Origin: Pseudomonadota bacterium
GTDB taxonomy: Bacteria; Campylobacterota; Campylobacteria; Campylobacterales; Sulfurimonadaceae
Length of the DNA stretch: 64,000 bases
Direction of reading: 5' to 3'
Assembly: GCA_043797085.1 (NCBI GenBank)
Contig: JAZDQA010000005.1
Location: 139,453-203,452, forward strand
Positions 13,945-38,426 of this stretch are shown here, piece after piece (positions within the stretch are counted from its first letter, which is position 1; every line of letters starts with the position of its first letter). The notes under the pieces are model-generated. The model was given only the letters and a program-made list of their open reading frames with translations. It made no database searches and was not told the DNA's origin. The position numbers and the translations under genes are program-made.

Positions 13945-14006
13945 GCTAAGAGTTTTACCTCAAAAAGATAAAACCCATAGGTGTGAATTAAAGAAGTTTA
14001 TTTTTT

Positions 14007-15809
14007 TTAGGAATTTAATACAAATTTTTTCTCTTCACCTTCACGTCGAAGAGAAACTTTCGTGACTGTTCCATTGGGTGAAAGAGTATATTTTTGGGAT
14101 GTTTTAGGATCAACAAATAAAATCTGCGTGTGACCGTTATAGCTGCCGTTATGGTTGATTGTGGCGTGTAAGTCAGCATCATACAGTTTATTGAGCGCAT
14201 CTTCAATCGTGTGGATGTGATCTTCATGCTCTTTGATGACGATTTGTTCTTCACCAAGTTGCGAAAGAGCAAATTTGAATTGTTGTACGCGAACCATATC
14301 TGCTTTAACAGGAAGCTGATGATGTGCTATGGCTTCTTTTATTTTCAGTTGAGTTTGTTTGATACGATTCATTTGTTCTTTTAGCGCGAGCTCTTTGCCT
14401 AGAAGTTCTTTGCCTTTATTCTGAATATGGAGATTTGCTTTTTTTAATTCCACTTCAAGGGTGTTGATTTGTTCTTCGTATGAAGGGATTGCACGAGGAT
14501 TGATGATGAGATTATTTCCCTCACCAACAATTGTATTAATCGTAATAGAGTTAAGGGCGGTAATTTTAGCGTTGGAATAAAGAATATCGATTGTGACATG
14601 ATTGGCGATAATCTCGCCTCCCATCATTTTACTGACATGAACGGTATGGGCTTCTATTTTCCCCGCTTCTAAAATTTCTATCGTCGCATTTTTAGCTTTT
14701 AAATCACCTCGATGGAGATGAATCGTGGCATTTTCTTGGACTTCAATAAGTGATTTTTTATGGGTTTGCGCTCCGATGGTGACATCACATGCCTGAATTT
14801 TTGTGTTGCTTCCTACGGTACCTTGGACATCTAGGGTTTGAACGTCGATATTGACTCCTGAACCAACCGCATCTTTAGTCTTATCTTCATGGCTTATTTT
14901 GACATGAATATCTTTGTCGCTTCCAGCTTCTATCGAGCCTGTGTCTTTGAAGCTTGCATGTTTTAGATGAAGTTCATGTGCGATGGAAAAAATGCCATTG
15001 ACACGTTGGACGAAGCCCGATTGTGTAGCATAGAAACGAATAGAGAGGGTATCTTCTTCGGCTCGTATCGTTTTGTGGTCGATGGTAATGGCTTTGGCAT
15101 AGCGAATAAGAGGCTCACCTACGTGGAGAAATTCCCCTGTACAACTGCGTCCATTACGTCCATTGACGGCAAAAATATACTCAAAGATCAAATCATCAGG
15201 CAAAACCCCTTCAATAAGATTATTGACATGTGCCTTTGTTTTATAATGAAGTATTACTGTGTCATTTATCGGTTGTATCGGGGGAAAGAAACGTGTGACA
15301 CCCATTCGATACGGTTCTTGTAATCTTCCTTCTTTTTGAATCTTGAGAAGTAGTTGATTGATTTGGCTGTCAAGGTCACTTTCTGTGATACCGATAAGCA
15401 AGCCTGCACGAAGTTTTTTGGCACGAATTTCTTTTTTGATGTAATCTTGAATCCCTTTTTTCAGAGGGATGATGGAAGAAGGGTCAATGACTATAATGGC
15501 TTTTGTCTTGTTTTTATCCGATGCTAAAGTCAAATGAAGATCAAAATGCGGATGCGGTTGTAAGGGATGAATGATAATCTGATATTCTTGTCGAACTTCA
15601 AAAGGAGAAGCTCGTATTTCAACCTCAGTAGTTACTTCCTCTAGTCGTGAAGCATCTAAAATACGCCACTCTTCGTCCACAGTTCCCCGATAGTAGGTGT
15701 GATAGGAGAGGAGATCAAATCCGATTTTTTCAATCGGAATCCCCGCATCCTGTGCTGCTTGTGTTAATGCAGTGTTGACATTTGATGTCGTTATTTTAAA
15801 GGCTTGCAC
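14007..15809 (-). CDS. Flagellar assembly protein A (FapA/DUF342)-like protein
   Basis: Beta-helix-like small-residue repeats followed by a coiled coil; resembles Campylobacterota FapA. Confidence 0.65.
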   Translation of the reverse strand: MQAFKITTSNVNTALTQAAQDAGIPIEKIGFDLLSYHTYYRGTVDEEWRILDASRLEEVTTEVEIRASPFEVRQEYQIIIHPLQPHPHFDLHLTLASDKNKTKAIIVIDPSSIIPLKKGIQDYIKKEIRAKKLRAGLLIGITESDLDSQINQLLLKIQKEGRLQEPYRMGVTRFFPPIQPINDTVILHYKTKAHVNNLIEGVLPDDLIFEYIFAVNGRNGRSCTGEFLHVGEPLIRYAKAITIDHKTIRAEEDTLSIRFYATQSGFVQRVNGIFSIAHELHLKHASFKDTGSIEAGSDKDIHVKISHEDKTKDAVGSGVNIDVQTLDVQGTVGSNTKIQACDVTIGAQTHKKSLIEVQENATIHLHRGDLKAKNATIEILEAGKIEAHTVHVSKMMGGEIIANHVTIDILYSNAKITALNSITINTIVGEGNNLIINPRAIPSYEEQINTLEVELKKANLHIQNKGKELLGKELALKEQMNRIKQTQLKIKEAIAHHQLPVKADMVRVQQFKFALSQLGEEQIVIKEHEDHIHTIEDALNKLYDADLHATINHNGSYNGHTQILFVDPKTSQKYTLSPNGTVTKVSLRREGEEKKFVLNS

Positions 15810-22152: not shown

Positions 22153-22719
22153 ATGCCAAAAGTTCTAATCCCTATTGCAACAGGTTTTGAAGAGATCGAA
22201 GCGGTGAATATCATCGATGTATTGCGTCGAGCGGGTATTGAAGTGATTATGGGTGCATTGGATGAGCATATGCTGGTCAAAGGTGCTCACGGTATTACGG
22301 TGCAGTGCGATCGTGTCATCACAGGTATCAGTGCGGATGAGCTCGATATGATCGTTCTCCCCGGCGGATGGGGCGGAACAAAAGCTCTTGCGCATGATGC
22401 AGCCGTTCAATCGCTTTTAAAAGAGATGGATGGCGCAGGGAAAAATATCGGTGCAATCTGTGCTGCTCCGTATGCCCTTTATACGGCGGGTGTTCTTAAA
22501 GAGGGATACACCTGCTATCCAAGTGTTGAAGATGAGATAAAAGTCGCTGGATATAAAGGGGATGAAAGTGCTGTGGTTCAAACGGACAACATTATGACCT
22601 CTCGCGGTCCTGCAACAGCAATTTGTTTTGGTTTGGCTATCGTTAAAAAGCTGACGGGTGATGAAGCGTATCATAAAGTTCGTGGCGGTTTGCTGGCAGA
22701 ATATTGTGAAAAAATATAG
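22153..22719 (+). CDS. DJ-1/ThiJ/YajL family protein
   Basis: GFEEIEA, LPGG, AICAAP, TSRGP. Confidence 0.92.
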   Translation: MPKVLIPIATGFEEIEAVNIIDVLRRAGIEVIMGALDEHMLVKGAHGITVQCDRVITGISADELDMIVLPGGWGGTKALAHDAAVQSLLKEMDGAGKNIGAICAAPYALYTAGVLKEGYTCYPSVEDEIKVAGYKGDESAVVQTDNIMTSRGPATAICFGLAIVKKLTGDEAYHKVRGGLLAEYCEKI

Positions 22720-23452
22720 TCTTATTCTTTTGAGCGTGTTGAGTTTCACTGCTTATGCTGAGGTGCATCTTTCTTCATCTGAAAATTTGACGCAAGAAAA
22801 TGCCATCCAATATTGTCGTGATATTGGTATAGGATGGAGGGCGCTGTCTATCCGCGAGTTGTATGAACTTTCTGAAAATATTTCCTTTAATACAGAGTTT
22901 AGCTATTGGTCGGGGATGAAAATCATTTCCGGCAATGCTATTACCGGAACGGGAAGTGAGGGTGATGGCGGAGTGATTGAAGTGCTGGGATACAGTTTTT
23001 TCCCAAAAGAGCGCAACATTACCCTGTCCCCTCCAACGAAAAAAATTGCTGCTGCGTGTACCAATCTCCTTGAGAGTAAACAAATACATGACTATCATTT
23101 AACGCCTCAAGGGACGGAAGATAAAGGTTCAGATCTGCTGTGGCATTCACTTAATGCGACGGATAAGCAACGAAAATATACGTATGAATCAGCCAAAGAG
23201 ATGTGCGAGAATTTAAGCCTGAATGGACGGATTTGGCGACTTCCTACGGCGGATGAACTGTACGGCATCGTTGATACTGCTTTTATCCGTCCGAGTGTGG
23301 ATATGAAATTTTTTGGTCCTATGATGCACCGTTACTACTGGACGAGTGACACGCTCAATGAGCACGAAGCGTATGCGGTCGGATTTAAGCTAGGTTCCGT
23401 TGCTACGGTTGTTAAAACTGAGTCAGCGTATGCACGATGTGTGAGTGAATAA
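22706..23452 (+). CDS. Secreted DUF1566 (Lcl) domain protein
   Basis: Probable GTG start at 22706 gives a signal peptide; two Lcl-like repeats (A..YC...WR, WRLPT.DEL, YWTS, ARCV). Confidence 0.78.
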   Translation: MKKYSLILLSVLSFTAYAEVHLSSSENLTQENAIQYCRDIGIGWRALSIRELYELSENISFNTEFSYWSGMKIISGNAITGTGSEGDGGVIEVLGYSFFPKERNITLSPPTKKIAAACTNLLESKQIHDYHLTPQGTEDKGSDLLWHSLNATDKQRKYTYESAKEMCENLSLNGRIWRLPTADELYGIVDTAFIRPSVDMKFFGPMMHRYYWTSDTLNEHEAYAVGFKLGSVATVVKTESAYARCVSE

Positions 23453-23563: not shown

Positions 23564-23642
23564 TGTTTGCACGATTCAATTTCAATTTCTGTCAATAATA
23601 GTATAATTTTTCCGATTTATTTAAATAATAACAAGGAAGCCA

Positions 23643-23918
23643 ATGTTGGACGAGAATGCAGCAATTATCCGTAAAAATGAGGTTATATTTTCAGAGATGG
23701 ATGGAGAACTTGTGATGATGGATCTTGATAAAAACAGCTACTTCGGGTTGAATGCTGTCGGTAAAGAGATTTGGGAGCTTTTATCCGAAGCCAATACCAT
23801 CGGCGGATTATGTGCAACATTGATGCAAAAATACAATGTAGATTTACAACGCTGCAAGCAGGATGTTACCGCTCATGTTGATAAAATGGTAGAAGTCGGC
23901 ATCGTTAAGACTATTTAA
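23643..23918 (+). CDS. Lasso peptide RiPP recognition element (B1/PqqD family)
   Basis: 91 aa with EMDGELVMMD...YFGLNAVGKEIWELL...Y.VD...C..DV; directly upstream of the cyclase. Confidence 0.93.
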   Translation: MLDENAAIIRKNEVIFSEMDGELVMMDLDKNSYFGLNAVGKEIWELLSEANTIGGLCATLMQKYNVDLQRCKQDVTAHVDKMVEVGIVKTI

Positions 23919-23952
23919 CAGCTTAAATACTTTACAAAGGATTTGACCATAT

Positions 23953-25860
23953 ATGGGATCATTTTATTTCATTCAACATTTTATAACTGTTTCGGCAGAT
24001 TCCATCGCCGATACACTGTTTGAAGCGGTAAAAAAGTATCCTCATGATCACGCGGAACGTTTGGTGGCAAATGAGATTGCCATGGGGCGATCGGGTATGC
24101 ACTGCTATACAAAAACGAACCCCAAAATAGATAATTTTACCCTGAGCGTCGATGGCAACTGTTTTTATCTGGTGGGGGATATTCGTCTTGATAATCGGTC
24201 TGAGTTAATCGAGAGATTAGAATTATCTTCCGATGTATCGTGGTCGAATGAAGAGATTATTCTCTGTACGTATCTGCAATTCGGGGAAGATTTTGCCGAT
24301 TATCTGTTAGGCGATTTTGCATTTGTCCTTCATCATCTCGAAACGGGTATGACGTTGGCAGTGAGAGATCATTTGGGGGTTATCCCTCTGTATTATCATG
24401 CAAATACCGATTTTATTCTTATCAGTGATACGATCGAGGTGATACTATCTCATCCGAGTATCGATCATGGGATAAACGATAACGTAGCGATGGAATTTCT
24501 CGTAGCGGGTCATGTTCACAACCAAAGAGAGACTTTTTATACCGTTATCCAAAAACTCCCCCGTGCTACTCAAATCCGTTTTAACGATCCAGTACTCATC
24601 TATCACACCTACTGGAATAGCGATCATATTCCCCCCTTACACTATGAGAGTGAGGCGGAGTACATCGATCATCTCCAAGATCTTTTGGAGAGGGTGATTA
24701 CGGATCGGCTCAAAACTTCCTGCCAGAGTGCGGCCCATCTCAGCGGCGGTCTTGATTCCTCCGTTATCGCGGTAGCGGCAGGGCGTGAAGTTAAAAAAGG
24801 CGGCGGAGTTTTTTACACCTACAACTGGTGTAAACCAGAGATAGGGGATGATCCCGATTATCACGAGTGGGCAGATGCTAGATCTATCGCACATGAGGAG
24901 GGATTTATCCACTCCGAGATTGATTACACCACCCGATCAGCGATAGGGGAATTACTCTCTCACAATATCGCGACCTCAGGAACAACGATGTTCGAGTATG
25001 AACAGCTGGTATTACCGCTCGCCGCAGAGCAGGGGGTGAAGATCATCTTCTCCGGTTTCGGCGGAGATGAGATGCTCACGATGCGCTTCAAAAATACCCA
25101 TATCGATCTGATCCGTAAAGGGAAGTTTTACCGTGTATGGAGAGGATTAGAAAACGAGATGGCACCGAAGGTAAAACTCAAAACGCTCCGCCTCTTCAAA
25201 CGGTTCATGCGTCTGCTCTTCAAAAGTATCATCCCTCAGCGGCAAAGGGAGTGCAAAGTCTGTGAAACACAAATACGCAAATTTTCCAATGCCCTCTCGA
25301 TCCTCCATCCAGAGTATACGGAGATGCTTAACATAGACGATTTTTTTTCATCCGCTTTTGCTCAGGTCGATACGATTCATGCAATGCAGCATAGCTATTT
25401 AAGTATGGGATACCATCAAGAGCGGATGGAGTGCTGGAATATCATGGGAAAAAAACAGGGAGTCATCTATGTTTACCCCTATCTCGATAAACGGATCGTC
25501 GAATTTGCCCTTTCTCTGCCTGAGAAGTTTTATTTTAAACACGGCGAGAGCCGATACCTCTATCGGCGCGCGGTGGGTGAGTTTTTACCTCGCGAACTTC
25601 TGGATAAACAAAAACCCCCTGAGTCATTTCGGGTTCGACATATATTAGAACGGATCAATGAAGCGCTCAGTGATCAAAAGATAGAGGAATATGTGAACTT
25701 TCGCGAATCACCTTATATCGATACCTCTGCATGGCGTCAAAAATACGATGAACTTCAAATACGCATACGGGAGAATCCAGAGGATATCATAGTTCTTTCT
25801 GCACTTGCCGCATTTAAAAACAGCGCTTTATTCTTTTTTTTAAGGAAAAATGACGGATAA
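23953..25860 (+). CDS. Lasso peptide macrolactam cyclase (C protein, asparagine synthetase-like)
   Basis: RLDNR, LLGDFAF, RDHLG, LSGGLDSS, SGFGGDE, YPYLDKRIVEF; lacks the N-terminal catalytic Cys of AsnB; flanked by RRE and precursor. Confidence 0.92.
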   Translation: MGSFYFIQHFITVSADSIADTLFEAVKKYPHDHAERLVANEIAMGRSGMHCYTKTNPKIDNFTLSVDGNCFYLVGDIRLDNRSELIERLELSSDVSWSNEEIILCTYLQFGEDFADYLLGDFAFVLHHLETGMTLAVRDHLGVIPLYYHANTDFILISDTIEVILSHPSIDHGINDNVAMEFLVAGHVHNQRETFYTVIQKLPRATQIRFNDPVLIYHTYWNSDHIPPLHYESEAEYIDHLQDLLERVITDRLKTSCQSAAHLSGGLDSSVIAVAAGREVKKGGGVFYTYNWCKPEIGDDPDYHEWADARSIAHEEGFIHSEIDYTTRSAIGELLSHNIATSGTTMFEYEQLVLPLAAEQGVKIIFSGFGGDEMLTMRFKNTHIDLIRKGKFYRVWRGLENEMAPKVKLKTLRLFKRFMRLLFKSIIPQRQRECKVCETQIRKFSNALSILHPEYTEMLNIDDFFSSAFAQVDTIHAMQHSYLSMGYHQERMECWNIMGKKQGVIYVYPYLDKRIVEFALSLPEKFYFKHGESRYLYRRAVGEFLPRELLDKQKPPESFRVRHILERINEALSDQKIEEYVNFRESPYIDTSAWRQKYDELQIRIRENPEDIIVLSALAAFKNSALFFFLRKNDG

Positions 25861-25888
25861 TAGTAGCAATTAATCATAAAGGATCCCT

Positions 25889-26029
25889 TTGGAAACCCCA
25901 TACAGCAGTGTTCAAGAGGCAAAGTTAGAGTGGAGCCAGCCGAAACTGGTCGAATTGGATGTCAATCAAACGGAAAGTGCTTCGCTTTCTTCGCCGGTTG
26001 AAGGTCCGTGGAGTCATCCATTTAGCTGA
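25889..26029 (+). CDS. Lasso peptide precursor (A), 46 aa: METPYSSVQEAKLEWSQPKLVELDVNQTE-SASLSSPVEGPWSHPFS
   Basis: Hand-translated and absent from the ORF track. SD AAAGGA then TTG start; leader WxxPxL motif; LDVNQT with Thr at -2; core Ser1 and Glu9; C-terminal Ser. Confidence 0.9.
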   Translation: METPYSSVQEAKLEWSQPKLVELDVNQTESASLSSPVEGPWSHPFS

Positions 26030-26039
26030 TAAAAAAAAG

Positions 26040-26117
26040 AGTATCCAAATTTAACCATCACCTCTCGATAAGCAGAGGTGATCCAATCTATTTGCTCAGG
26101 TATGTGAATATCCTTAT
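26040..26117 (-). repeat. Degenerate copy of the sulfotransferase 3' end
   Basis: Ungapped 64/78 match to 29007-29084; translates as KDIHIPEQIDWITSAYREVMVKFGY versus KDILTSEQIDKITSAHREIMGKFGY. Confidence 0.85.
26057..26082. terminator. Hairpin between the convergent precursor and UnbUV-like genes
   Basis: Perfect 9-bp inverted repeat ATCACCTCT-8nt-AGAGGTGAT. Confidence 0.5.
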
Positions 26118-26128
26118 TCTCTCATCGC

Positions 26129-29005
26129 CTATTCATACCAAATATGAACAGCTCCTTTTGTTAGATGCGTTATTTTTTGAGTAGTACCGTTTGGCCAGGT
26201 TACTTCCATCATTTCAGGGGAATCGTTTTCTTTGATACCAAAATGAAGACGATAGGGCTGTGCACTGTCCCAGCTACCGCCTGAGCGAATTTCTTGCACT
26301 TGTTTACCTTGTTTGGTATATAAAATGATGCGGCTACCGACTCCGTAATAGTTACCAGATTTACTTCGCAGTTCTACGGAAATACTATCACCTCCATGAT
26401 GATTTTGATAATACTTGGATGACTCGAATACTGTATTCACCACGATGTCACCATCACCATCGTTGTCAAAATCGGCGATCATGACTCCACGGCTATCTGA
26501 GACTAGATCCAAACCAAGGAGTTTTGTTTTATTGAAAAAATGAATCTTCTGGGATTTTGACACATTTGTTTTATTGATTAGCATTGCATTCGGTATTCGA
26601 GTTAAACCTAACTCTGCTCCAGTAGTGATGTAAAGATCCAATAAGCCGTTATTGTCGATGTCATAGGGGTATGCAGCCCAAGACCATCCTGTAAAGATAG
26701 CATCATTGTCAACTAAAACATCATGATAATTTCCTTGAGTGTCACGTTTTAGCAAGATGTTTCTATTGACCCGTTTAGGGAAACGCTCGGCATGGTATTT
26801 GTTGGCGTTTGGATTAATATTTGAAATATTATCCGGCATCAAACGTCTTTTGCAGACTTGTTGTTCTCCGATATTTTGGATTTTATCACATTCACGAGGA
26901 TCATTTAAATCCATACCTCTATGTTTAGCCTGTGTTTCATAACAAATGTCTCGTACATAGTTGTTTGAGATTAAATCGCAGTTGAAATGTCCTGTGTGCA
27001 GGTTATTTCGTATTAATTGAAACTCACGACTGATGATGTCTTTACGGATATCGGGTTGACTGAGTACTTCTTTGAATCTATTGTTTTGGTATTGTACGCT
27101 ATTTGAAATACAGTTTTCCCAGAGCTCAAATGTTCCGTCGTTGTCGAAATCACCGCTTAAATAACTCATACTTGAATTACTATTGTAAGGAATTTTATTT
27201 TTATCGATGAGACGGAATCGATGTTCTTCATCTCCTATCAGTGTTAAAGTGGGTTGTAGATCATTGGCCAACATAAAATCAACATGACCGTTTTGATCCA
27301 AATCGCTAAATAAAGCAGTCATCCCTGCATACTCATTTTGGGTATCGGGCATATAGTGTATCGATTCTTCTCTCCATCCCTCTTTGCTGCTGATCCATAG
27401 CTGATCGTTCATTCCATTACTTTTTAAAAAACCGGATGTCCGTCGTTTGTCGCTGTAAAAATCTCGATCATAAGCAATATAAATATCTAAAATTTTATCC
27501 TTATTGAGATCATATAAAGCGATTCCACCCGTCACGCTGCGTTTATACCCGTAAAATTGAAAAGAAGGTTTGAATTGTTTTTTAATAGAATCAAAGAGGT
27601 AGATTTGATGTTTTTGAGGCTTGTTCACATATTGATTTTTTAGCAGTATCATATCCAGATAAGTATCATTATTGAGATCAGCCAGCGCTATATACTCGAT
27701 GTTAGCAGGGATATTTTTTCCAAACAAATCGAAGGTAGCATCGATAAAACCGTGATTCTTTGTTCCGAGGTAGCATCGTAAAGGGACTCCTGTTTTTGCC
27801 ATAACAATATCCAGTATTCCGTCGTGATTGATGTCCCCCGCCGCTAATGGACTGTGATGAAGAAATTCCCATCCAAGTTCTTTGCGTGTTATGTGTGGCA
27901 AATAGGATTTGAAAGCAGTATCACGTGTCTCAAATGTTGGATGCGGATTCGTTTCCTTTTGTAAAGGCATTGTGATTATGTGGGAATGATTCCATTGAGT
28001 TTTGTAGAGGCTTTTATTTTCGTCACTCCAAATATTTATCCCGGATGGCACAGGAATTTCATTTTGGTAACGTGTATGTTCGTGTTGAGATGATCTGTGA
28101 TTAGAACTGGATTCAAGATTGCGTATATAATTGTAGTTCGAAAAATAAGTCACTACGATAACCATTAGTTCGAATATAAGTATGATGACAATAGTTTTAT
28201 TTAAATATCGACTTGATTCTAAATTACGGAGCCATGGCACAGTTAATGTCAATAAAAAGAGGGATAAAAACATATAAATTTCACGTGCACCGAAAAAAAG
28301 CTCAAGAATAAGAGGTAAAATAGCGATTGATATCGCAAAGAAAATTTGTGTTGCATAGCGATCAGGAGAGGTTCGGGGATCGGTAAGCATAAAAAACATA
28401 AAGAGCAAAAAACTCCCTGAAATCAGTAAATGAAAAATTTCATAGATATTATGCGTGATGAATAAGTAGGTTACTAGAGCATACGTTAGGATAAAAATGA
28501 CAGGGATAAGAACTCTGTGCACTTTAATGGTGATATAAATTCCAAGAGACATCATAATGAGGCCAAGCCACCATAAGTCACCCCATTGTTCTGGGGTTGT
28601 ATAAGTTTGATAAGGGAAAAACATTAATCCTATGACAACAGCGACATTGGATGGATTAAGGAAGTGTTTACTTCGGATTATTAGCCAGTGTTTTTGCAGA
28701 AGTGCTACGAGTATAACGATAAAATAAATATAAAGATCACTGGTACGAAGCATAAATGATATGCCTAGCGCAGTGCTGACGGCAGAAAAAGAGAAAAAAG
28801 TGAGTGCTTTATTTTTAATATACAAAAGTGTATGCTCGACCAAGATAGCAAAAGTGACGATGGCACCGATCTCGATCCACCGGATCGGGAGATTTAAAAC
28901 TATTTTTCCAATCAGCATTAGTAAAATGAGATTAAACATTTGGAGACGTTGTATTGTATTGGTCTTAGAGTTGATGTTTGGTTTCAAATGTAAAATATTA
29001 TTCAT
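26129..29005 (-). CDS. Fusion of an RnfD/UnbU-like membrane domain with FG-GAP repeats and an ASPIC/UnbV domain (CRTAC1-like)
   Basis: N-terminal multi-TM region with HFLNPSN and FMLTDPRTSP; repeated D-x-N/D-x-D-G..D motifs; C-terminal YGVGSRI...SGGSWDSAQ...LHFGI...VTWPNG. Confidence 0.8.
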   Translation of the reverse strand: MNNILHLKPNINSKTNTIQRLQMFNLILLMLIGKIVLNLPIRWIEIGAIVTFAILVEHTLLYIKNKALTFFSFSAVSTALGISFMLRTSDLYIYFIVILVALLQKHWLIIRSKHFLNPSNVAVVIGLMFFPYQTYTTPEQWGDLWWLGLIMMSLGIYITIKVHRVLIPVIFILTYALVTYLFITHNIYEIFHLLISGSFLLFMFFMLTDPRTSPDRYATQIFFAISIAILPLILELFFGAREIYMFLSLFLLTLTVPWLRNLESSRYLNKTIVIILIFELMVIVVTYFSNYNYIRNLESSSNHRSSQHEHTRYQNEIPVPSGINIWSDENKSLYKTQWNHSHIITMPLQKETNPHPTFETRDTAFKSYLPHITRKELGWEFLHHSPLAAGDINHDGILDIVMAKTGVPLRCYLGTKNHGFIDATFDLFGKNIPANIEYIALADLNNDTYLDMILLKNQYVNKPQKHQIYLFDSIKKQFKPSFQFYGYKRSVTGGIALYDLNKDKILDIYIAYDRDFYSDKRRTSGFLKSNGMNDQLWISSKEGWREESIHYMPDTQNEYAGMTALFSDLDQNGHVDFMLANDLQPTLTLIGDEEHRFRLIDKNKIPYNSNSSMSYLSGDFDNDGTFELWENCISNSVQYQNNRFKEVLSQPDIRKDIISREFQLIRNNLHTGHFNCDLISNNYVRDICYETQAKHRGMDLNDPRECDKIQNIGEQQVCKRRLMPDNISNINPNANKYHAERFPKRVNRNILLKRDTQGNYHDVLVDNDAIFTGWSWAAYPYDIDNNGLLDLYITTGAELGLTRIPNAMLINKTNVSKSQKIHFFNKTKLLGLDLVSDSRGVMIADFDNDGDGDIVVNTVFESSKYYQNHHGGDSISVELRSKSGNYYGVGSRIILYTKQGKQVQEIRSGGSWDSAQPYRLHFGIKENDSPEMMEVTWPNGTTQKITHLTKGAVHIWYE

Positions 29006-29838
29006 CAGTATCCAAATTTCCCCATTATCTCTCGATGAGCAGAGGTGATTTTGTCTATTTGCTCCGAGGTGAGAATATCCTTATATCCTCCCGTTTTACC
29101 TGATCTAAAAAAGCTCTTCGATTTCGTCGGTTTTTCACGGAAACTTTTTGCCTCTTCTTGTTTTTTCAGCTCCTCAAAACTCGAAAATCGGACTGCTTTA
29201 GTCAGACGATCGGGATCGATCTCAAATCCCATAAACTCCAGCATTTCTTGAAACGTCTCATAGGGGTGTGATAGCATATCCTCATACCGCATCACATGAA
29301 CCCTAAGCGGTGAATCGATCCAGCTGCGCACATGGGACGACCAATCCAACAATCTCTGAGGGAGCTGATCGGCGAGCGTTTTTTCCGAAAGGGCGATGGT
29401 AAATGACTCCTTATTGATGTTTGCGTAAGTTTTAGAAATATCTTTCCCCCCGTGTGCGGCGTAGGAGACTGCTACGTCCATAGGATTACGCAGGATATAA
29501 ATCACCCCCTTGGTCACCAATGCAGGAAAGAGCGGTTCTCCAACACTATTGAGAGTATAAGCATCATGAACTTTGATGTAATAATCACGTGTTGCATGAG
29601 CCATCAGCTCCTCATACAAGCGAGGCTGAAAGAGCCGTATTTGCTCCTCGCTCATGTCCGAGGAGGGGAGACACAGCAGATCATCAAATGTCTCGCGGTT
29701 ACTCGCGATACCATCGGTTTGCAGAGCATTGATGTCAGCTGGTTCATCGCTGTTTACGAGATAGTTTGTGATGAGAGCACGGGTCCAGGTATTACCGCTT
29801 TTGGGATACGAAGCGAGCCAGTAGATACCGTGACTCAT
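29005..29838 (-). CDS. PAPS-dependent sulfotransferase (Sulfotransfer_1)
   Basis: 5'-PSB ASYPKSGNTW, 3'-PB RNPMDVAVS, RYEDM, FFRSGKTGG. Confidence 0.93.
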   Translation of the reverse strand: MSHGIYWLASYPKSGNTWTRALITNYLVNSDEPADINALQTDGIASNRETFDDLLCLPSSDMSEEQIRLFQPRLYEELMAHATRDYYIKVHDAYTLNSVGEPLFPALVTKGVIYILRNPMDVAVSYAAHGGKDISKTYANINKESFTIALSEKTLADQLPQRLLDWSSHVRSWIDSPLRVHVMRYEDMLSHPYETFQEMLEFMGFEIDPDRLTKAVRFSSFEELKKQEEAKSFREKPTKSKSFFRSGKTGGYKDILTSEQIDKITSAHREIMGKFGY

Positions 29839-30740
29839 CGCATATCTTTTTCGATGATGTCGGCGAGTTCACGAAGGGAGTTTTTCTCTTTGGGGCGGAT
29901 AACACGTTTGACGATGTGATCCTGCGCTAGTTTGGAAGAGAGGATAAAATGCTCTTTTCGTATCGGCAGATGCTCCAGAAACTTTTTACGATAGGTGTTG
30001 TTTTTAAGGACGGAGAATTTTTCTATTCCGTTGATCTCTTCGAGTACAATCTCCTCTTTGGTATGAGTAGAGAGGATATACATGGAGTGTAAAGCAAGAG
30101 GTGTATCATGAAAATGCTCAAAGGTCGGAACAGCAAATTTATCAAGTTCTGGACGAATTTGGCGTAATCCCTCGGTATTTTGATCCAGCATTACAGCACT
30201 TTGGTGCCACAGTTTGGTTTGGGGATAGGAGGGGAGAGCGGTAATTTTTTGATTCTCTCCATCCCAATACAATGCGATCGTATCATCGGAGAGTTTTTTG
30301 TAGCCTCTACGGATAAACTCCTGAGAAAGGGTACTTTTTCCCGCACCCGAAACTCCGGCAAACAGTACAGCCCCCTTGGGGGTTGCAATCGCGCTGGCAT
30401 GGAGTGTGAGATACCCCCTTTGCTGCAACAACGCTCCGATAGCTGAGCCAAATAAAAATAATCGTATCTCATCTTCGGTGCAATCATGCTCCTTTTCGAT
30501 AATAATCTCATTACCGTTACGTACTAAAAAAGCTCCAATCGTCGGGAGTCTCATGATAAGTTCAGCCTCATTTGCCTCAAAAGTAGGGCCGTGATTAAGA
30601 GTATTTTCCAACTTTTTGGGTACATCGCCATACCGGATATGGACCGAGGAGAGAGCCTTGGCTTCGTCTGCTGTGATGGGAACGAGTTCAGGTGCGATAA
30701 ATGGTGTCTCGAAATGGAGACCAAAAGCTTTATAATCCAA
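29835..30740 (-). CDS. HPr kinase-like lasso peptide kinase
   Basis: LHASAI, Walker A GVSGAGKST, LSDD; TTG start after AAGGAA; lasso context. Confidence 0.88.
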   Translation of the reverse strand: MDYKAFGLHFETPFIAPELVPITADEAKALSSVHIRYGDVPKKLENTLNHGPTFEANEAELIMRLPTIGAFLVRNGNEIIIEKEHDCTEDEIRLFLFGSAIGALLQQRGYLTLHASAIATPKGAVLFAGVSGAGKSTLSQEFIRRGYKKLSDDTIALYWDGENQKITALPSYPQTKLWHQSAVMLDQNTEGLRQIRPELDKFAVPTFEHFHDTPLALHSMYILSTHTKEEIVLEEINGIEKFSVLKNNTYRKKFLEHLPIRKEHFILSSKLAQDHIVKRVIRPKEKNSLRELADIIEKDMR

Positions 30741-30893
30741 GAAATTCCTTAAAAATAATCTATATTCAGAGTATCCTATATATTAAAAAAAAGTATACCT
30801 GCTTTAGAGCTAAAGTACCTTGAGCCGAAGTAACAAATTGGATTAAATAGAGCAGATTGTTCCATTTTGCTTTATATGCCTGGTGCTGCTATC

Positions 30894-32732
30894 TCAAACA
30901 TGGATATTTTCTATCTGCTGTTTCCATGATTGGGCATATTTGCCATCAAGAGACATCAATGATTCATGAGTGCCGGACTCTATCACTTTTCCCTGATCCA
31001 TCAGGTGGATAATATCGGCTTTCATGGCAGTAGTGAAGCGGTGTGTGATAATGACCGCTGTTTTATTTTTGGCAAGCTCCATAAAGCGCTGAAGCCAGTC
31101 ATTTTCCGCCCATGAATCCATCGCACTGGTCGGCTCATCGAGGATAATAAAAGGGGCCTTACGGAAAAAAGCCCGTGAAAGGGCGATCCTCTGCCACTCT
31201 CCAGTACTGAGATCTTCCCCACCGAACTGTCTGCCCAATCGGGTGGCATACCCCTGTTTCAGCCGTGATATCGGCCCATCAGATCCCCCTTGGTAGGCTG
31301 CATTATCGATCTCCTCCTGAAGAGGTACACGGCTCATATCCCCAAGGGCGATGTTTTGTGCGGCGGTCGCTTCGTATTTGACCGGTTCTTGAAAGAGGAC
31401 AGTTGTGTACCGGTGCAGCATATCGGGAGAGAACTCTCTAAAATCGGAACCGTCCAAGGTTATCTTCCCTTCTTGCGGATCGTAAAAACGGTTGAGAAGT
31501 TTGATGAGGGTACTTTTACCCGCACCGTTTGTACCCACAATCGCTACCGTTTTCCCAGCAGGGATGGTCAATGAAAAATTGCTAAGAGCCCATCGTGCTG
31601 TATGGGGATAGCGGAAGGATACATTCTCGAACCGGATTTCATCGGTTAGAAATTGGGGAGATGCAAGGGTTTGGTTGGATTCAAGAAGTTTGGGGCGGAT
31701 ATCGAAAAAATCAAACAAATTTTCCAAAAATGTAATATTTTTGTACACTTCCCCGATATCGCGCAGCAGTGTTTTCATCATTTTTTGACCCTGATTGAAT
31801 GCCTGATAAAACAGGACCAAGTCCCCCATTGAAGCCTTACCTTCTAATGCCTGTATAAGCATCCACCCAACTGCCACTGCTACAACGGCAAGTCCGAGTA
31901 TTACAACAAAAATCTCAGAGATCACTTCATCGCGTATTAATTTGATATGTTCAGTGCGCAGTTTAGTTTTGAGCAGAGTGAATTGATTTTTGAAATACTC
32001 TCCTAGCTTAAAAAGGCGAATCTCGGCCGCAGTCGATTGGTGAGTGATAATCCAATCATAGTAATTGGTTTTTCGTACTGTTGCAGTATTTTTGGTACGC
32101 CAGTGATGGAAACGGATCGTGTGGCGGATGACTAGGAGCAAAGCTGGAAATGTTCCCAGTAGCAGAAGTAACGGTAGCCACCATGCATAGGGTAACAGCA
32201 GTATCAACATTCCAAGGAGTGTAATGCCCGAACGGGTAAGATTACCGATATTTTCCAACAGGGCTAAGGGACGACTCATCGCATCGATACGGGCACGATG
32301 GAGCTTGTCGTAATATTCGGGCGAGTCAAAAAAACTCATATCCAGCGAAAGGGCCTTGGAGTGTATTTGATCGTAAATGGAGTCACTGATGAGTTCGCTC
32401 TGAACCGTCCGTATCCATTTGGTGATCGTATTCAGAAGCTCATTGAGTACCATCAAAAATACCATCAGCGTAATGGTAGGCATAACGGGCTGCATACTCT
32501 CCCAACTCTTGTATTCACCCATCGCCGCAGTAATGCCGTCGATCAGAGGTCCCATCAGGTAAACGATTGCTGCGGGTATGATCCCCTGCAGTATCAGCAG
32601 TACCATCCAAAAAAACGACCACCATCCCGACGCGTTCCAAATTAGTCTAGCGGTACGAGAGAGATAGGGGATCTGAGCTGAAAATTTAACTAAAGCAAGA
32701 TGAAGTTTGGAGAGTGTAGACACTTGAGACAT
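30894..32732 (-). CDS. ABC exporter, fused permease and ATPase (lasso D protein)
   Basis: TM domain; GTNGAGKST, LSTGEWQRIALSRA, ILDEPTS. Confidence 0.93.
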   Translation of the reverse strand: MSQVSTLSKLHLALVKFSAQIPYLSRTARLIWNASGWWSFFWMVLLILQGIIPAAIVYLMGPLIDGITAAMGEYKSWESMQPVMPTITLMVFLMVLNELLNTITKWIRTVQSELISDSIYDQIHSKALSLDMSFFDSPEYYDKLHRARIDAMSRPLALLENIGNLTRSGITLLGMLILLLPYAWWLPLLLLLGTFPALLLVIRHTIRFHHWRTKNTATVRKTNYYDWIITHQSTAAEIRLFKLGEYFKNQFTLLKTKLRTEHIKLIRDEVISEIFVVILGLAVVAVAVGWMLIQALEGKASMGDLVLFYQAFNQGQKMMKTLLRDIGEVYKNITFLENLFDFFDIRPKLLESNQTLASPQFLTDEIRFENVSFRYPHTARWALSNFSLTIPAGKTVAIVGTNGAGKSTLIKLLNRFYDPQEGKITLDGSDFREFSPDMLHRYTTVLFQEPVKYEATAAQNIALGDMSRVPLQEEIDNAAYQGGSDGPISRLKQGYATRLGRQFGGEDLSTGEWQRIALSRAFFRKAPFIILDEPTSAMDSWAENDWLQRFMELAKNKTAVIITHRFTTAMKADIIHLMDQGKVIESGTHESLMSLDGKYAQSWKQQIENIHV

Positions 32733-33226
32733 TAGTGAGCCTCATTGATCGAGGAAAATACGGAGACAACGGTAAAATTTCGGTGCCCTGAAGCTCCGCA
32801 GAGGATTTTAGAACCGTTTCGCAACCATGCATGAGCTTTTAGACCATTACCCCCTTCTTCACGCGCTACACCCAGATAAAGATTCCATCCCAGTCCCCTG
32901 CGACGAAGCATCCGCTGCGCCGCAATCGCTTGAGGAAGGCAGACACTCTCCCATGGGGTATAACGCACGGCCCGTGCAATCGCATGTGCTATTTTGAGCG
33001 CTTTAGCATCAGACTCTGCTTCTTTCAATGGATCGTTCTTGTCGATCAATGTTCCCAAAGTCGGGGCAATACGTTTAAAGGGGATAAACGCTACTGAAAG
33101 TCGTGCAACTCCCAGAAAGTATGCCGCTTCGAAAAAAAGGATTTTATCGGCGGCGGGAAGACGGTGCCATGCGGTGAGTTTGTGTTTTAGGACTACAAAC
33201 GGATTTTTACTCATCACCATCTCCAC
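32732..33226 (-). CDS. Lasso peptide leader peptidase (B2, transglutaminase-like)
   Basis: PWESVCLPQAIA (Cys), LGV, AHAWL (His); start uncertain among nearby Met codons. Confidence 0.93.
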   Translation of the reverse strand: MEMVMSKNPFVVLKHKLTAWHRLPAADKILFFEAAYFLGVARLSVAFIPFKRIAPTLGTLIDKNDPLKEAESDAKALKIAHAIARAVRYTPWESVCLPQAIAAQRMLRRRGLGWNLYLGVAREEGGNGLKAHAWLRNGSKILCGASGHRNFTVVSVFSSINEAH

Positions 33227-33464
33227 TTTTAAAGAAGAGATAGTATCAAGAATTTCCTGAGTACATCATTGCAGAAAGATTCTGTTTGGGGCTTGCGTAT
33301 TAGAATTCTCAATAAAGTTTTAAATCTATGATAAAATTTTAGGAGCAACGGGATGTTGACGCAGAATTCTGAAGAAGTATTTGGCAAACTCCAAGTGGTG
33401 TGATTAATCGAAATATCATGAATATAAAAAACGGTCTGCGTAGATGTAAAAGGGAAGAATAGCA

Positions 33465-34697
33465 ATGATAAAACACGACGAGAATTATATTCAGCAAGCA
33501 TTGTTGACCTTTTTAAGAGATGATATTGCGCAAAATGCATTGCCCAATTTGCTAATGATAGAGTGGGAAGAGCTCATTGTATTGGCAAAAAAACAGCATG
33601 TTGCTGAATATCTTTATTATCATCTAAAACAAAACCATCTTTTAGAGTTAATTCCTAATGAGCAAAAAAATATGATGGCTGAATCATTTAAGAAACGAAC
33701 ATTTCGAAATCTTGCACTTATGGCGGAATTTCATAGGGTTGTGAATGTATTGCATCAACATCATATCCCCGTAATTGCTCTTAAAGGGCTGCATCTGGTA
33801 GAATCGGTTTACCCTCATATCGCGACACGATTTTTTAGGGATTTGGATGTGCTAGTTCCGATACCTCATGGGAGAGAAGCGTATAACTGTGTTTTAAACA
33901 TGGGATATAAGAGTGATAAAAAACTCACTGATTTGGATTTTTCCTTTCAATATCACAACCACTTTGATCAGCTTATCCATACAAAAAACAAAACCGTGCT
34001 GGAAATTCATGGCTATATTTCTAAAGATTTTAAAAATGATGCACTGCTATTATGGGAAAATGCGATTGCAAGCACCAATAAAGCACACCATCATTTAACC
34101 TTGGACTTGGAAGATTTATTGATACATTTGTGTGTTCACATCAGTCATGGAGATCTGTTTAAAATTGACTTGAGACACTATCTTGATATCTATTTAGTCC
34201 TCCAAAAATATAAAGAAGCGATCCATTGGGATAAAGTAATACAGCGGTCGCAAGACAGGGGGTGCTTTGGTGGTGTGGCTATCGTGCTTACTATCGTTGA
34301 ACAACTCTTTCACATCGATATTTCGGAAACATTCACACACAATATTCAAAATAATGAGAAGGCAAAACAAACAATAAAATATGCCCTAGAATTTTTATGG
34401 ATGTATGATAGATCCTCAAAAGGGTATAAGGAGTACAAAACAAAAGTACCATTGCCGCATCACAATGGTTCTTTCTTTAAAAAAGGATTGATGAGACTTT
34501 TTCTGAATAAAGAGGAGCTTGCATTTAACTATTCCTTGGACAAAAACTCATTCAAAGTTTATTTTTATTATCCTGTCCGCTTTATAGATTTAGTACGAAA
34601 ACATTCTAAAACAACACTTCAAAATCAGATTGTTCAAAAAAACAAGAGTTTTATCGAAAAAACAAAATACGTCAATAATTATCTTTTGAACGTTTAG
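33465..34697 (+). CDS. Nucleotidyltransferase family protein (lasso-associated, NTP_transf_5-like)
   Basis: LKGLHL...YP....R...DLDVLV, LEIH, HLCVH, YLDI. Confidence 0.87.
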   Translation: MIKHDENYIQQALLTFLRDDIAQNALPNLLMIEWEELIVLAKKQHVAEYLYYHLKQNHLLELIPNEQKNMMAESFKKRTFRNLALMAEFHRVVNVLHQHHIPVIALKGLHLVESVYPHIATRFFRDLDVLVPIPHGREAYNCVLNMGYKSDKKLTDLDFSFQYHNHFDQLIHTKNKTVLEIHGYISKDFKNDALLLWENAIASTNKAHHHLTLDLEDLLIHLCVHISHGDLFKIDLRHYLDIYLVLQKYKEAIHWDKVIQRSQDRGCFGGVAIVLTIVEQLFHIDISETFTHNIQNNEKAKQTIKYALEFLWMYDRSSKGYKEYKTKVPLPHHNGSFFKKGLMRLFLNKEELAFNYSLDKNSFKVYFYYPVRFIDLVRKHSKTTLQNQIVQKNKSFIEKTKYVNNYLLNV

Positions 34698-34751: not shown

Positions 34752-35660
34752 GTGAATGAACAACGGTTAACTCACCTTAAAACTCTCGAGGCAGAATCGA
34801 TTCATATACTGCGTGAAGTGGTTGCGGAGTTTGAAAATCCGGCGATGCTCTACAGTGTTGGAAAAGACTCCTCTGTCATGCTGCATCTGGCTCAAAAAGC
34901 TTTCTACCCCGCTTCCCCTCCATTTCCCTTAGTCCACGTTGATACGATGTGGAAATTTAAAGAGATGATTGAGTTTCGAGACAGTCGAACGAAAGAGCTG
35001 GGGATGGAATTGATTGTTTATACCAATCCAAAAGGTATTAAGATGAATATTAGCCCTTTTGAACACGGCTCCGCTGTACATACCGATATCATGAAAACCG
35101 AAGGGCTCAAGCAAATGCTCGATCTCTACAAATTTGATGCACTGCTCGGTGGAGCACGACGGGATGAAGAGAAAAGTCGGGCAAAGGAGCGTATCTACTC
35201 TTTTCGAGATGAATTTCACCGTTGGGATCCGAAAAATCAACGTCCGGAGTTATGGAATATTTACAATAGCCGTCACCATAAAGGTGAAAGTATCCGTGTT
35301 TTTCCTCTTTCGAACTGGACGGAGCTTGATATTTGGCAATATATTTATCTGGAACAAATAGCGATTCCAGAACTCTATTTTGCCAAAGAACGTGACGTTG
35401 TCGAATACGGCGGAACAAAAATTATGGTAGATGATGAGCGCATGCCTGAGAGCTTGCGAAAATCGGCTAAAAAAGAGAAAGTTCGTTTTCGAACGCTTGG
35501 ATGTTATCCGCTGACAGGTGCTGTAGAATCGACTGCGACAACCCTGAGTGAAATTATTCAGGAGATGCTGCTTGCCAAAACCTCTGAACGTCAAGGGCGA
35601 GTGATCGATAATGATTCTTCCGGATCGATGGAGAAAAAAAAGATCGAAGGATATTTCTGA
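34752..35660 (+). CDS. cysD: Sulfate adenylyltransferase subunit 2
   Basis: [49 protein letters not shown]. Confidence 0.97.
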
Positions 35661-37105
35661 TGGCTCATCAATCAGAACTGATTTCCCAAAACATCGAGCA
35701 ATATCTCAAAGAGCATGAGAATAAGGAGCTGCTGCGCTTTATTACGTGCGGCAGTGTCGATGACGGAAAAAGCACCCTAATCGGGCGTCTTTTATACGAC
35801 TCAAAAATGATTTTTGAAGATCAGCTTGCCGCGATTCAAAAAGAGAGTAAAAAAATGGGAACGCAAGGGGATGATATTGATCTTGCATTACTGGTTGACG
35901 GCTTGCAAAGCGAACGTGAACAGGGAATCACCATCGATGTTGCCTATCGCTATTTTTCGACTGACAAACGTAAATTTATCATTGCCGATACTCCCGGACA
36001 TGAACAATACACCCGTAATATGGCAACAGGTGCTTCGACGGCAGATTTGGCAATTATTCTTATTGATGCACGCTACGGTGTACAAACACAGACCAAACGC
36101 CATACCTATATCGTCAATTTGATGGGGATTAAACATATCATTGTGGCTATTAATAAAATGGATTTGATCGGTTTTTCAGAAGAACGTTTTGAGGAGATTC
36201 AGCAAGAATATCAAGTTTTTGCACAGGAACTTGGGATTCAAAATCCTCTATTTATTCCGATTTCGGCACTAATGGGTGATAACGTCGTTAATCCAAGCGA
36301 TTTAATGCCATGGTATCAGCGAGATCCTTTAATGAAGATACTCGATACTATCAATATCGGATATGATGCCAACCAATATCCAACCATGTTTCGATTTCCT
36401 GTGCAATACGTGAACCGTCCAAATCTTAATTTCCGTGGCTTTTCTGGATCGATCGCTTCTGGAAGTGTCAAAGTAGGCGATGAGATTACGGTACTTCCCT
36501 CAGGAAAAACCACACGGATTAAATCAATCATACCCCCAGCCATAGCTAATGGAACACAACAATTAATGACGATTGATGAAGCTTATGCTCCAATGGCAAT
36601 CACGCTGACAACCGAAGAAGAAATTGATATCAGCCGAGGGGATATGATCGTTCATTCCAGCCATCTTCCGAGAATTTCTAACAGTCTTAAAGTAATGATA
36701 GTTTGGATGGATGAAGAACCAATGATTCCGGAGCAAAGTTATTACATCAAAACCTCTACCTCATTAATAAACGGAAGTTTTAAGCATATTAATTACAAAG
36801 TCAATGTAAATACCTATGAAAAAGTATATGTAGAGAAATTGCAGCTGAATGACATTGCTTCATGTAAAATGGTATTGCATCGCCCAATAGTTGCAGAACC
36901 GTACAGTCTTAACCGCTTTACGGGTAGATTTATCATCATAGACCGTATGACTAACAATACAGTGGGAGCTGGGATGATCGTGGACGTGAGTCGCCGAGAG
37001 CATGAAAAGATTATCGAAACCAGTAGAGAATATATAAAAGAGGAAATCGAATTGAACGCTTATGTCCGTAAACATTTTCCAGAGTGGGGATGCAAAGCAA
37101 TCTGA
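35660..37105 (+). CDS. cysN: Sulfate adenylyltransferase subunit 1
   Basis: [47 protein letters not shown]. Confidence 0.97.
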
Positions 37106-37830
37106 TGTACAGAGAAACAAATATTCGTACTATCGCTAAAGGATTTAGCTGGCGCTTTTTTGCAACTGCGACAACTGTCCTTATTGTGTATCTTTTTTTT
37201 GGTCGTCTCGATCTCGCGATTGCTGCGGGTATTTTAGAAACGTTTTCAAAAGTGTTACTCTACTATGGCCATGAGAAATTATGGCAACGTGTCCGATGGG
37301 GGAAAAAGAAAATTGAGCCGTTTAATTTATGGTTTACCGGTTTGCCACTGTCAGGTAAAACTACTATTGCTGATTTGGTATATGAAAAGCTCAAAAAATA
37401 CGATATCCCTATGGAGAGAATCGATAGTAAGGATATCCGTGAACTGATACCAGATATCGGGTATACGCGTGAAGATCGGAACCGTCACATGCATCGTCTT
37501 GGACATCTTATAAAGACCTTGCAAAATAATTCCATTTCGACAGTGGCCTCTTTTGTATCTCCTTATCGTGAATCTCGTAAAGCAATACGTGAAATGGTCA
37601 AAAATAATGTTATTGTGTACGTCAAAGCCGATATTGAAAGCTGCAAGCAGCGAGATTATAAAGGAGTATATATTAAAGCACTCAAGGGAGAACTTCAAAA
37701 TTTTTCAGGTATCAATGATGTGTATGATGAACCACAGCATGCTGAGATTACGATAGATTCTGATGAAATGAGTGCAAATGATGCATCCGATAAAATTGTT
37801 CAATACATTAAAAAGAGATATATCAAATGA
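37105..37830 (+). CDS. Adenylyl-sulfate kinase-like protein with N-terminal DUF2061-like membrane domain
   Basis: Likely start at ATG 37105 overlapping the cysN stop; K..SWR...YYGHEKLW domain followed by WFTGLPLSGKTT, SFVSPY, RDYKG.Y. Confidence 0.85.
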   Translation: MYRETNIRTIAKGFSWRFFATATTVLIVYLFFGRLDLAIAAGILETFSKVLLYYGHEKLWQRVRWGKKKIEPFNLWFTGLPLSGKTTIADLVYEKLKKYDIPMERIDSKDIRELIPDIGYTREDRNRHMHRLGHLIKTLQNNSISTVASFVSPYRESRKAIREMVKNNVIVYVKADIESCKQRDYKGVYIKALKGELQNFSGINDVYDEPQHAEITIDSDEMSANDASDKIVQYIKKRYIK

Positions 37831-38426
37831 TGAGTTCACATGTAGTATGGCATGATCACAGTGTATCCAAAGCACAACGTTCATTACAAAAAGACCAAAA
37901 ACCTTGCATATTATGGTTCACAGGTCTCAGTGGTTCTGGAAAATCGACTATAGCTAATGCATTAGATGCCAGATTTGTTGAGATGGGCAAACATACTTAT
38001 TTACTCGATGGTGACAATATCCGTCATGGACTAAATTGTGATTTAGGCTTTAGTGATAATGATCGTATTGAAAATATTCGGCGCATTGGAGAGGTAAGTA
38101 AACTTTTTGTTAATGCGGGATTGATCGTGATAACTACCTTCATCTCACCGTTTCAAGCCGACAGGAAGATGGTTCGTGAATTGGTAGACGAGAGCGAGTT
38201 CATCGAAATATTTATAGATACAACACTGGATATATGCGAATTACGAGACACAAAAGGGCTATATAAAAGAGCGAGAGTCGGTGAGATTGTAAATTTTACC
38301 GGTATTGATTCCCCTTATGAGCCACCAAATAATCCTGAAATCCATATAAAAACAGAGGTAAGTGATATTACAGAAGCGGTTGAGAAAATTCTTGCTTATC
38401 TTGTATTAAATGGGTGGAACCTCTAA
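37827..38426 (+). CDS. cysC: Adenylyl-sulfate kinase
   Basis: WFTGLSGSGKST, LDGDNIRHGL, ENIRR, FISP, FTGIDSPYE. Confidence 0.96.
   Translation: MMSSHVVWHDHSVSKAQRSLQKDQKPCILWFTGLSGSGKSTIANALDARFVEMGKHTYLLDGDNIRHGLNCDLGFSDNDRIENIRRIGEVSKLFVNAGLIVITTFISPFQADRKMVRELVDESEFIEIFIDTTLDICELRDTKGLYKRARVGEIVNFTGIDSPYEPPNNPEIHIKTEVSDITEAVEKILAYLVLNGWNL

Follow-up and report, generated by a model that had tools for sequence, protein, structure and literature searches.

Paeninodin has a ring of nine residues, and it is encoded in Paenibacillus dendritiformis by a cluster comprising PadeA, PadeK, B1, B2, C, and D. The DNA analyzed here, a stretch of 64,000 nucleotides (hereafter the window), carries a related gene set in a Campylobacterota-type genome, whereas the host of paeninodin belongs to the Bacillota. 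The two precursors are alike in the Trp-x-x-Pro at position −15 and the Thr at position −2. Split B1 and B2 genes, an HPr-kinase-like gene, and a core ending in Ser are also common to both systems (PMC8498205, PMC9266682, PMC13381572). They differ in gene order, which in the window is B1-C-A with B2-D-K on the other strand, and in the core, which is shorter in the window (17 aa), Ser-rich, and starts with Ser. In addition, the window adds a sulfotransferase and a PAPS module.

The pseudomycoidin cluster of Bacillus pseudomycoides (psmA, K, C, B1, B2, N, D) resembles that of the window in containing both a kinase and an uncharacterised NTP transferase (PMC6993621). Both cores end in Ser; that of pseudomycoidin is phosphorylated and then hexosylated, and the decoration may, by the proposal made there, act as a lock for the thread (PMC6993621). 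A sulfotransferase is not among the genes described for the psm cluster, and the word has no occurrence in the available text of PMC6993621, whereas the window contains such a gene. SyanA and SyanK of Sphingobium yanoikuyae, a proteobacterial system for a polyphosphorylated lasso peptide, were compared by description only. The likeness lies in a kinase-bearing cluster, a Gram-negative host, a gene order unlike that of Firmicutes, and a C-terminal Ser (PMC8498205, PMC9266682). The precursors of the two phyla are described as sharing little beyond the terminal Ser (PMC8498205), yet the window leader resembles the paeninodin type.

An HPr kinase and a sulfotransferase beside lasso genes were noted bioinformatically by Letzel et al. 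(2014; PMC4289311), with the role stated as unknown, and likewise by Zhu et al. (2016), as reported in PMC8498205. The window shares this pair with those clusters, which come from Firmicutes or anaerobes, and it differs in the 4-nt gene overlap, the duplicated cysDN, and the two APS kinases. The clusters for linear polyphosphorylated peptides (LPP) have an RRE along with an HprK-like kinase, an NTP transferase, an MsbA-like exporter, and a related leader motif in common with the window (PMC13381572). However, they are described with a SipW-like signal peptidase, YxxP leaders, and no cyclase (PMC13381572). No signal peptidase family was found among the Pfam matches of the 17 neighbouring ORFs in the window. 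LPP membership (SipW-like signal peptidase I, no cyclase, YxxP) was rejected, as a cyclase, B2, and a WxxP leader are present.

According to Popov et al. (2026; PMC13381572), the first-position Trp is nearly invariant in paeninodin-like precursors, while Tyr is found in other lasso and LPP leaders; the leader Trp of PbaA is at −15 (PMC13381572). W15 of the window peptide is likewise at −15, and its cluster combines an HprK-like kinase with a C-terminal core Ser. Residues 13–29 matched positions 2–18 of the 30 positions of profile NF033524 (“paeninodin family lasso peptide”; E 0.0013, 18.4 bits). This score is under the curated cut-off of 27 bits, and thus the peptide is paeninodin-like only and was not filed as a family member. 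The same profile matched five of the eight aligned relatives (best E 1.8e-5). The resemblance to paeninodin-type leaders claimed in the first-pass annotation, which had been made from the letters alone, was therefore borne out by a sub-threshold match and by the Trp position of PbaA. Judged by its genes, the window peptide is paeninodin-like in leader and tailoring set. The kind is already known, that is, a paeninodin-like lasso precursor in a kinase/nucleotidyltransferase/sulfotransferase cluster, and this ORF is a further member. Its value is that the substrate of a complete lasso-peptide cluster is pinned down, so the mass of the product becomes predictable and searchable. No characterised lasso peptide from Campylobacterota was found in the literature searched, where only surveys mention both terms.

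The precursor gene and its neighbours

The features of the locus are listed below in window coordinates.

23602–23607, + strand: TATAAT, a −10-like hexamer ahead of B1 (a hint only)
23643–23918, + strand: B1, PqqD-type RiPP recognition element, 91 aa (PF05402, E 4.2e-18; NF033536, 76.2 bits)
23953–25860, + strand: C, lasso macrolactam cyclase, 635 aa (Asn_synthase, E 6.3e-32; NF033535, E 1.6e-68)
25856–25861, + strand: GATAAT, a −10-like hexamer overlapping the cyclase stop codon (a hint only)
25878–25883, + strand: Shine-Dalgarno site AAAGGA, 5 nt ahead of the TTG
25889–25975, + strand: leader, codons 1–29, with W15-x-x-P18-x-L20, T28 (−2), and E29 (−1)
25976–26026, + strand: core, codons 30–46, SASLSSPVEGPWSHPFS; Glu9 codon at 26000–26002, stop at 26027–26029
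26057–26082, listed on the − strand by the terminator scan: 9-bp hairpin between the convergent precursor and 958-aa genes
26129–29005, − strand: 958-aa membrane protein with an RnfD/NQR2-like N-terminal part (PF03116, E 3e-11), FG-GAP repeats, and an ASPIC/UnbV end
29005–29838, − strand: PAPS-type sulfotransferase, 277 aa (PF00685, Sulfotransfer_1, E 2.8e-28)
29835–30740, − strand: HPr-kinase-like kinase, 301 aa (TIGR04355, E 8.4e-9, and PF07475, E 3.1e-5, both under cut-off)
30894–32732, − strand: D, ABC exporter, 612 aa (PF00005, PF00664)
32732–33226, − strand: B2, lasso leader peptidase, 164 aa (NF033537, 95.1 bits, cut-off 33)
33465–34697, + strand: NTP_transf_5 nucleotidyltransferase, 410 aa (PF14907, E 1.4e-46), divergent from B2
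34752–38426, + strand: PAPS supply module with CysD-like and CysN-like genes and two APS kinases

The translation of the 46-codon ORF at 25889–26029 (+), with the TTG first codon read as M, is METPYSSVQEAKLEWSQPKLVELDVNQTESASLSSPVEGPWSHPFS. The ORF, the TTG, the AAAGGA, and the spacer of 28 nt between the cyclase stop (25860) and the TTG had been claimed in the first-pass annotation, and all of them were confirmed at this position. An in-frame TAA is located upstream at 25877–25879, which leaves the TTG as the sole possible start, whereas the relatives described below start with ATG. The gene is the third in the order B1-C-A and lies directly behind the cyclase. The exact 46-aa protein is already on record in a large protein collection, so it has been called by at least one gene caller.

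A lasso precursor is recognized as a small ORF beside an Asn-synthetase-like cyclase and a B-type leader peptidase (or split B1 and B2), and such neighbours are present here, with B2 6.7 kb off on the other strand. The motif for RRE binding is defined as [Y/W]xxPx[L/V/I/F/A] (PMC13381572), and Thr at −2 is described for lasso leaders (PMC4289311; also PMC10368454). The window leader contains both, its motif reading W15-S-Q-P18-K-L20. The core (S30–S46) has six Ser, no Tyr, and Glu9 as the single acidic residue, which falls within the range of Asp or Glu at core positions 7–9 that serves as ring acceptor. The WxxPxL, the Thr at −2, the Glu at −1, the Ser and Tyr counts, and Glu9 thus read in the translation as the first-pass annotation had given them. 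Its call of a lasso precursor also agreed with the two genes upstream, whose PF05402 and NF033535 matches identify a PqqD-type B1 and a lasso cyclase.

The solved chains nearest to B1 were 9x90_B, a lasso peptide biosynthesis PqqD family chaperone (E 6.9e-9), and then TbiB1 (E 3.4e-8). The NF033535 score of the cyclase (231.9 bits) is under the 525-bit cut-off of that profile. B1, the cyclase, B2, the exporter, and the kinase-like, sulfotransferase, and nucleotidyltransferase genes are all intact. B2, D, the kinase, and the sulfotransferase are on the opposite strand to the precursor, behind the gene of the 958-aa protein, which had no homologue in the related lasso loci by blastp. The start of the sulfotransferase gene overlaps the end of the kinase gene by 4 nt. 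The segment 26030–26110, which includes the hairpin, folds at −16.4 kcal/mol (z −2.73). A tblastn search of the whole assembly found a second cysDN pair on contig C7 (75 and 57% identity) and no APS kinases other than the two beside the window cluster, one of which carries a DUF2061 membrane domain.

A 103-aa ORF upstream of B2 (33229–33540, −) was judged spurious; it has no family match and overlaps the start of the nucleotidyltransferase gene. Just upstream of the lasso genes, a 264-aa protein with a hydrophobic N-terminus and an Lcl C-terminal domain (22658–23452, +; PF07603, E 1.3e-20) is encoded, for which no link to the lasso cluster was seen.

The groundwater metatranscriptome X1 holds 82% of the sampled words of 23600–26130, and 21 of the 22 pieces of its contigs on this stretch were at least 99% alike. 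One contig of 939 bases covers 25868–26806, including the whole precursor ORF, with zero differences. These data are assembled contigs, which carry no information on strand, start, or level, and carried-over DNA may contribute; the precursor ORF is present in the RNA library, which falls short of transcription from the + strand. Little or no X1 cover was found at about 26812–33321, with gaps at 25399–25676 and 25827–25867. Depth was 28.4 for the contig over the precursor versus 2.5–3.5 for fragments of the 3′ half of the cyclase gene, although contig depth and holes cannot rank genes. Libraries X10 and X11 yielded no contigs on the stretch, and library X2 yielded only short pieces with unlike flanks.

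The left end of the contig over the precursor (25868) is exactly 7 nt after GATAAT. Likewise, the B1 contig has its left end, flanked by adapter letters, at 23614, exactly 7 nt after TATAAT. A position 7 nt after [TG]ATAAT is found at 0.1% of window positions. It is possible that 23614 and 25868 are the transcription starts of B1-C and of the precursor gene, respectively, and GATAAT at 25856–25861 is a hint that the latter gene may have its own promoter.

Related peptides in other genomes

Two Sulfurovum records (L006 and L005) contained cyclases 44–45% identical to that of the window, and a small ORF with the same leader directly follows each of them (10226–10372 in L006 and 3108–3260 in L005). 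The first-pass annotation had made its call depend on conservation next to homologous cyclases, and homologous small ORFs do adjoin such cyclases. In total, nine related peptides were found inside the lasso gene sets of seven other genomes. The ten distinct peptides compared were those of the window, L006 (to which the peptide of G682 is identical), L005, G024 (a, b, and c), G375, G136, G679, and G373. The genome G024 belongs to the same genus as the window. Two of its precursor genes stand in tandem, followed by B1-B2-D and divergent from a pair of kinase and sulfotransferase genes, and a third precursor gene precedes another cyclase. The relatives in G375, G136, G679, and G373 were added by profile searches. 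For the G136 peptide, no cyclase was detected in the available 19.8 kb up to the end of the contig.

K12, P18, and T28 are invariant in the alignment of eight rows, and the cores diverge; a conserved leader with divergent cores is the pattern typical of RiPP precursors. Across the ten peptides, the Pro and the Thr at −2 were always kept, and each core had an acidic residue at position 7–9, which was Glu9 in seven. Eight ended in Ser, the exceptions being L006 (Ser-Ala) and G373 (Ser-Gly).

The exporter and B2 of the window were 91 and 79% identical to the G024 proteins by blastp. However, the window cyclase was only 23–24% identical to the two cyclases of G024, against 44–45% to those of Sulfurovum. 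This suggested that the window cluster is a mosaic formed by module exchange between lasso clusters. A homologue of the nucleotidyltransferase (43% identical) adjoins the exporter in L006.

The precursor family is rare. A search of the large protein collection with the peptide returned only the peptide itself and no close orthologue, and the PDB sequence search with the precursor had 0 matches. Searching 61 relatives with the single peptide gave weak matches, among which that in G024 (E 0.021) is real; others came from a 233-aa frame of G039 (E 0.127) and an 852-aa frame of G026 (E 0.433). With a loose threshold of E ≤ 0.1, the profile search at the family level matched 18 of 353 genomes, own genome included, and besides that genome the matches in G024, G375, and G136 are real. 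The weak matches L012, L013, L014, and L017 contained nothing lasso-like by the motif regex. Only one of the 65 other genomes of the genus had a relative, and in an even draw of the phylum four of 401 genomes matched at E ≤ 0.01, again including the own genome.

Some of these loci had unusual organizations. The locus in G024 (L029; C38:105500–125400) is a super-locus in which, within 20 kb, three precursor genes and two cyclases are accompanied by three kinase-like genes and one sulfotransferase, by one B1 and two B2, and by an exporter. In G373 (L032/L033; C1, about 1257996–1260095), the cyclase frame runs without a stop into precursor-like sequence, giving an open frame of 699 aa that ends in a leader and a core with Glu9 and has Gly as its last residue. 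This frame may be a cyclase-precursor fusion, or an internal ATG may serve as the start of the precursor. In L006, a second B1-like gene, together with a kinase-like gene (12864–14140), was found 2.5 kb beyond the Sulfurovum precursor gene, and they may belong to a second peptide system of the lasso or linear phosphopeptide type.

Proposed maturation and tailoring

We propose, with a probability of about 0.8, that the ORF encodes, as gene A, the precursor of a class II lasso peptide of the paeninodin-like type, which would be matured by the neighbouring enzymes. B1 would bind the leader through W15-x-x-P18-x-L20, and cleavage by B2 behind Glu29 would be directed by Thr28 at −2. For ring closure, the cyclase would then link the Ser1 amine of the core with the Glu9 side chain, which is proposed because no other core residue is acidic. 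The predicted product would have a nine-residue ring and an eight-residue tail, GPWSHPFS. While the precursor is still linear, its C-terminal Ser17 would be phosphorylated by the HPr-kinase-like enzyme, as described for PadeK, ThcoK, and SyanK, and the nucleotidyltransferase may, like PsmN, attach a hexose to this phosphate. With PAPS from the adjacent module, the sulfotransferase may transfer sulfate to the hydroxyl of a Ser or to an appended group, since the core has no Tyr. Finally, the ABC transporter would export the mature product. The calculated mass of the cyclised core is 1752.8107 ([M+2H]2+ 877.4126), and it would become 1832.7771 with HPO3, 1832.7675 with SO3, 1912.7339 with both groups, and 1994.8299 with phosphate and hexose; the phosphorylated and sulfated forms would lie 9.5 mDa apart.

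The topology of the product could be different. The Ser1-Glu9 ring may form in a branched-cyclic, unthreaded peptide, or the peptide may be threaded only via a bulky C-terminal decoration, and Trp12, His14, and Phe16 would then not be plugs. The tail has only eight residues behind a wide nine-residue ring, and pseudomycoidin, the product of a related kinase/nucleotidyltransferase cluster, was unthreaded when isolated in its wild-type form, with the C-terminal phospho-hexose proposed as the lock (PMC6993621). However, the tail contains three bulky residues (W12, H14, and F16), and we consider this alternative to the threaded lasso rather unlikely.

Lasso kinases have been described as phosphorylating the linear precursor rather than the folded lasso, at the C-terminal Ser and in some cases more than once (PMC8498205, PMC9266682), and PsmN-type NTP transferases as adding one or two hexoses onto the C-terminal phosphate, perhaps as a thread lock (PMC6993621). 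In the kinase alignment, His was kept in five of six rows, and GxGKST and SDD were kept. These residues are consistent with the His-Lys-Asp-Asp motif named for lasso kinases (PMC9266682). Kinase-like genes were found beside lasso genes in L027, L029 (three), L006, L033, and L034, with a fragment in L005, and they adjoin the lasso genes in every complete related locus. A correlation between a C-terminal Ser and the presence of a kinase was looked for and rejected: kinase-like genes are also present in the non-Ser loci L006 and G373, which leaves no contrast between presence and absence, so the link of Ser and kinase rests on published biochemistry.

Another explanation accepts the precursor as real but assigns the kinase, sulfotransferase, nucleotidyltransferase, and PAPS genes to a different pathway, such as that of a surface polysaccharide or of the substrate of the 958-aa protein, and the product would be an undecorated lasso of 17 residues. 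The sulfotransferase and PAPS genes are indeed missing from most related loci, and two peptides end in Ala or Gly despite the presence of a kinase-like gene. Furthermore, no sulfated lasso peptide was found in the literature searched, and sulfation is missing from the many lasso modifications covered by the June 2026 review PMC13352647, with no occurrence of “sulfo” in its available text. However, a kinase-like gene beside the lasso genes is a regular feature of the complete related loci, and most of the peptides, eight of ten, end in Ser. The overlapping kinase and sulfotransferase genes follow B2-D in one strand run in the window, and the same pair is divergent from A-A-B1-B2-D in G024. An undecorated product was therefore regarded as decidedly unlikely.

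With tailoring by the neighbouring enzymes as the preferred reading, the point of interest is the sulfotransferase, with a Tyr-free, Ser-rich 17-mer as its putative substrate. Its nearest solved chains were Teg12 (E 1.9e-14), Teg14, and StaL, enzymes that sulfate glycopeptide antibiotics. Of the loci examined by blastp, the window and G024 alone contained a sulfotransferase, and none of the related ones contained a homologue of cysDN or cysC. The cluster carries its own PAPS supply in the form of the duplicated cysDN and the only APS kinases of the genome. In the two loci that carry a sulfotransferase (window and G024), all three cores are without Tyr, which excludes a Tyr target there, in line with an earlier remark that any sulfation would not be on Tyr. 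For the window core, the candidate sites are thereby narrowed to Ser or an appended group. The role of the sulfotransferase in lasso clusters has been open since 2014–2016 (PMC4289311, PMC8498205), and it is now testable with a 17-residue substrate.

Tentatively, these observations can be joined into a fuller picture, which we regard as possible but on balance doubtful. The cluster would make the first sulfated lasso peptide, a 17-residue Ser1-Glu9 product whose C-terminal Ser would be phosphorylated and then bear sulfate. The sulfate might sit directly on a Ser hydroxyl or be attached through the phosphate or hexose at Ser17, and its donor would come from the adjacent PAPS factory. The host would be a groundwater Campylobacterota of the sulfur cycle, with the gene transcribed in situ from the precursor’s own promoter.

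Gene or chance frame

A generic lasso pattern was defined as Y/W-x-x-P-x-hydrophobic, T at −2, a small residue at position 1, an acidic residue at position 7–9, and a short tail. It was found in six of the 67,982 stop-to-stop frames (≥20 aa) of the own genome, compared with two to six in five residue-shuffled sets. The motif regex was therefore rejected as evidence for a gene, being equally frequent in shuffled frames, and the position of the ORF and its homologues carry the case for the precursor.

A leave-one-out HMM was built from six peptides of other genomes, with the window peptide excluded, and it was run over all 67,982 frames. The window ORF scored 36.1 bits (E 1.2e-8), and the runner-up frame had an E of 2.1. 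Only one lasso cyclase was detected in the whole assembly by tblastn. The single significant HMM match together with the single cyclase makes the ORF the genome’s only candidate substrate for that cyclase. The ORF is short, starts with TTG, and has a pattern expected about four times per genome by chance, but its explanation as a random open frame in the spacer of two convergent genes is close to refuted by the wide gap between the HMM E-values, the syntenic homologues behind homologous cyclases, the good Shine-Dalgarno site, and the fact that the cluster would be left without a substrate. On the strength of these sequence comparisons, the ORF at 25889–26029 is a genuine lasso-peptide precursor gene.
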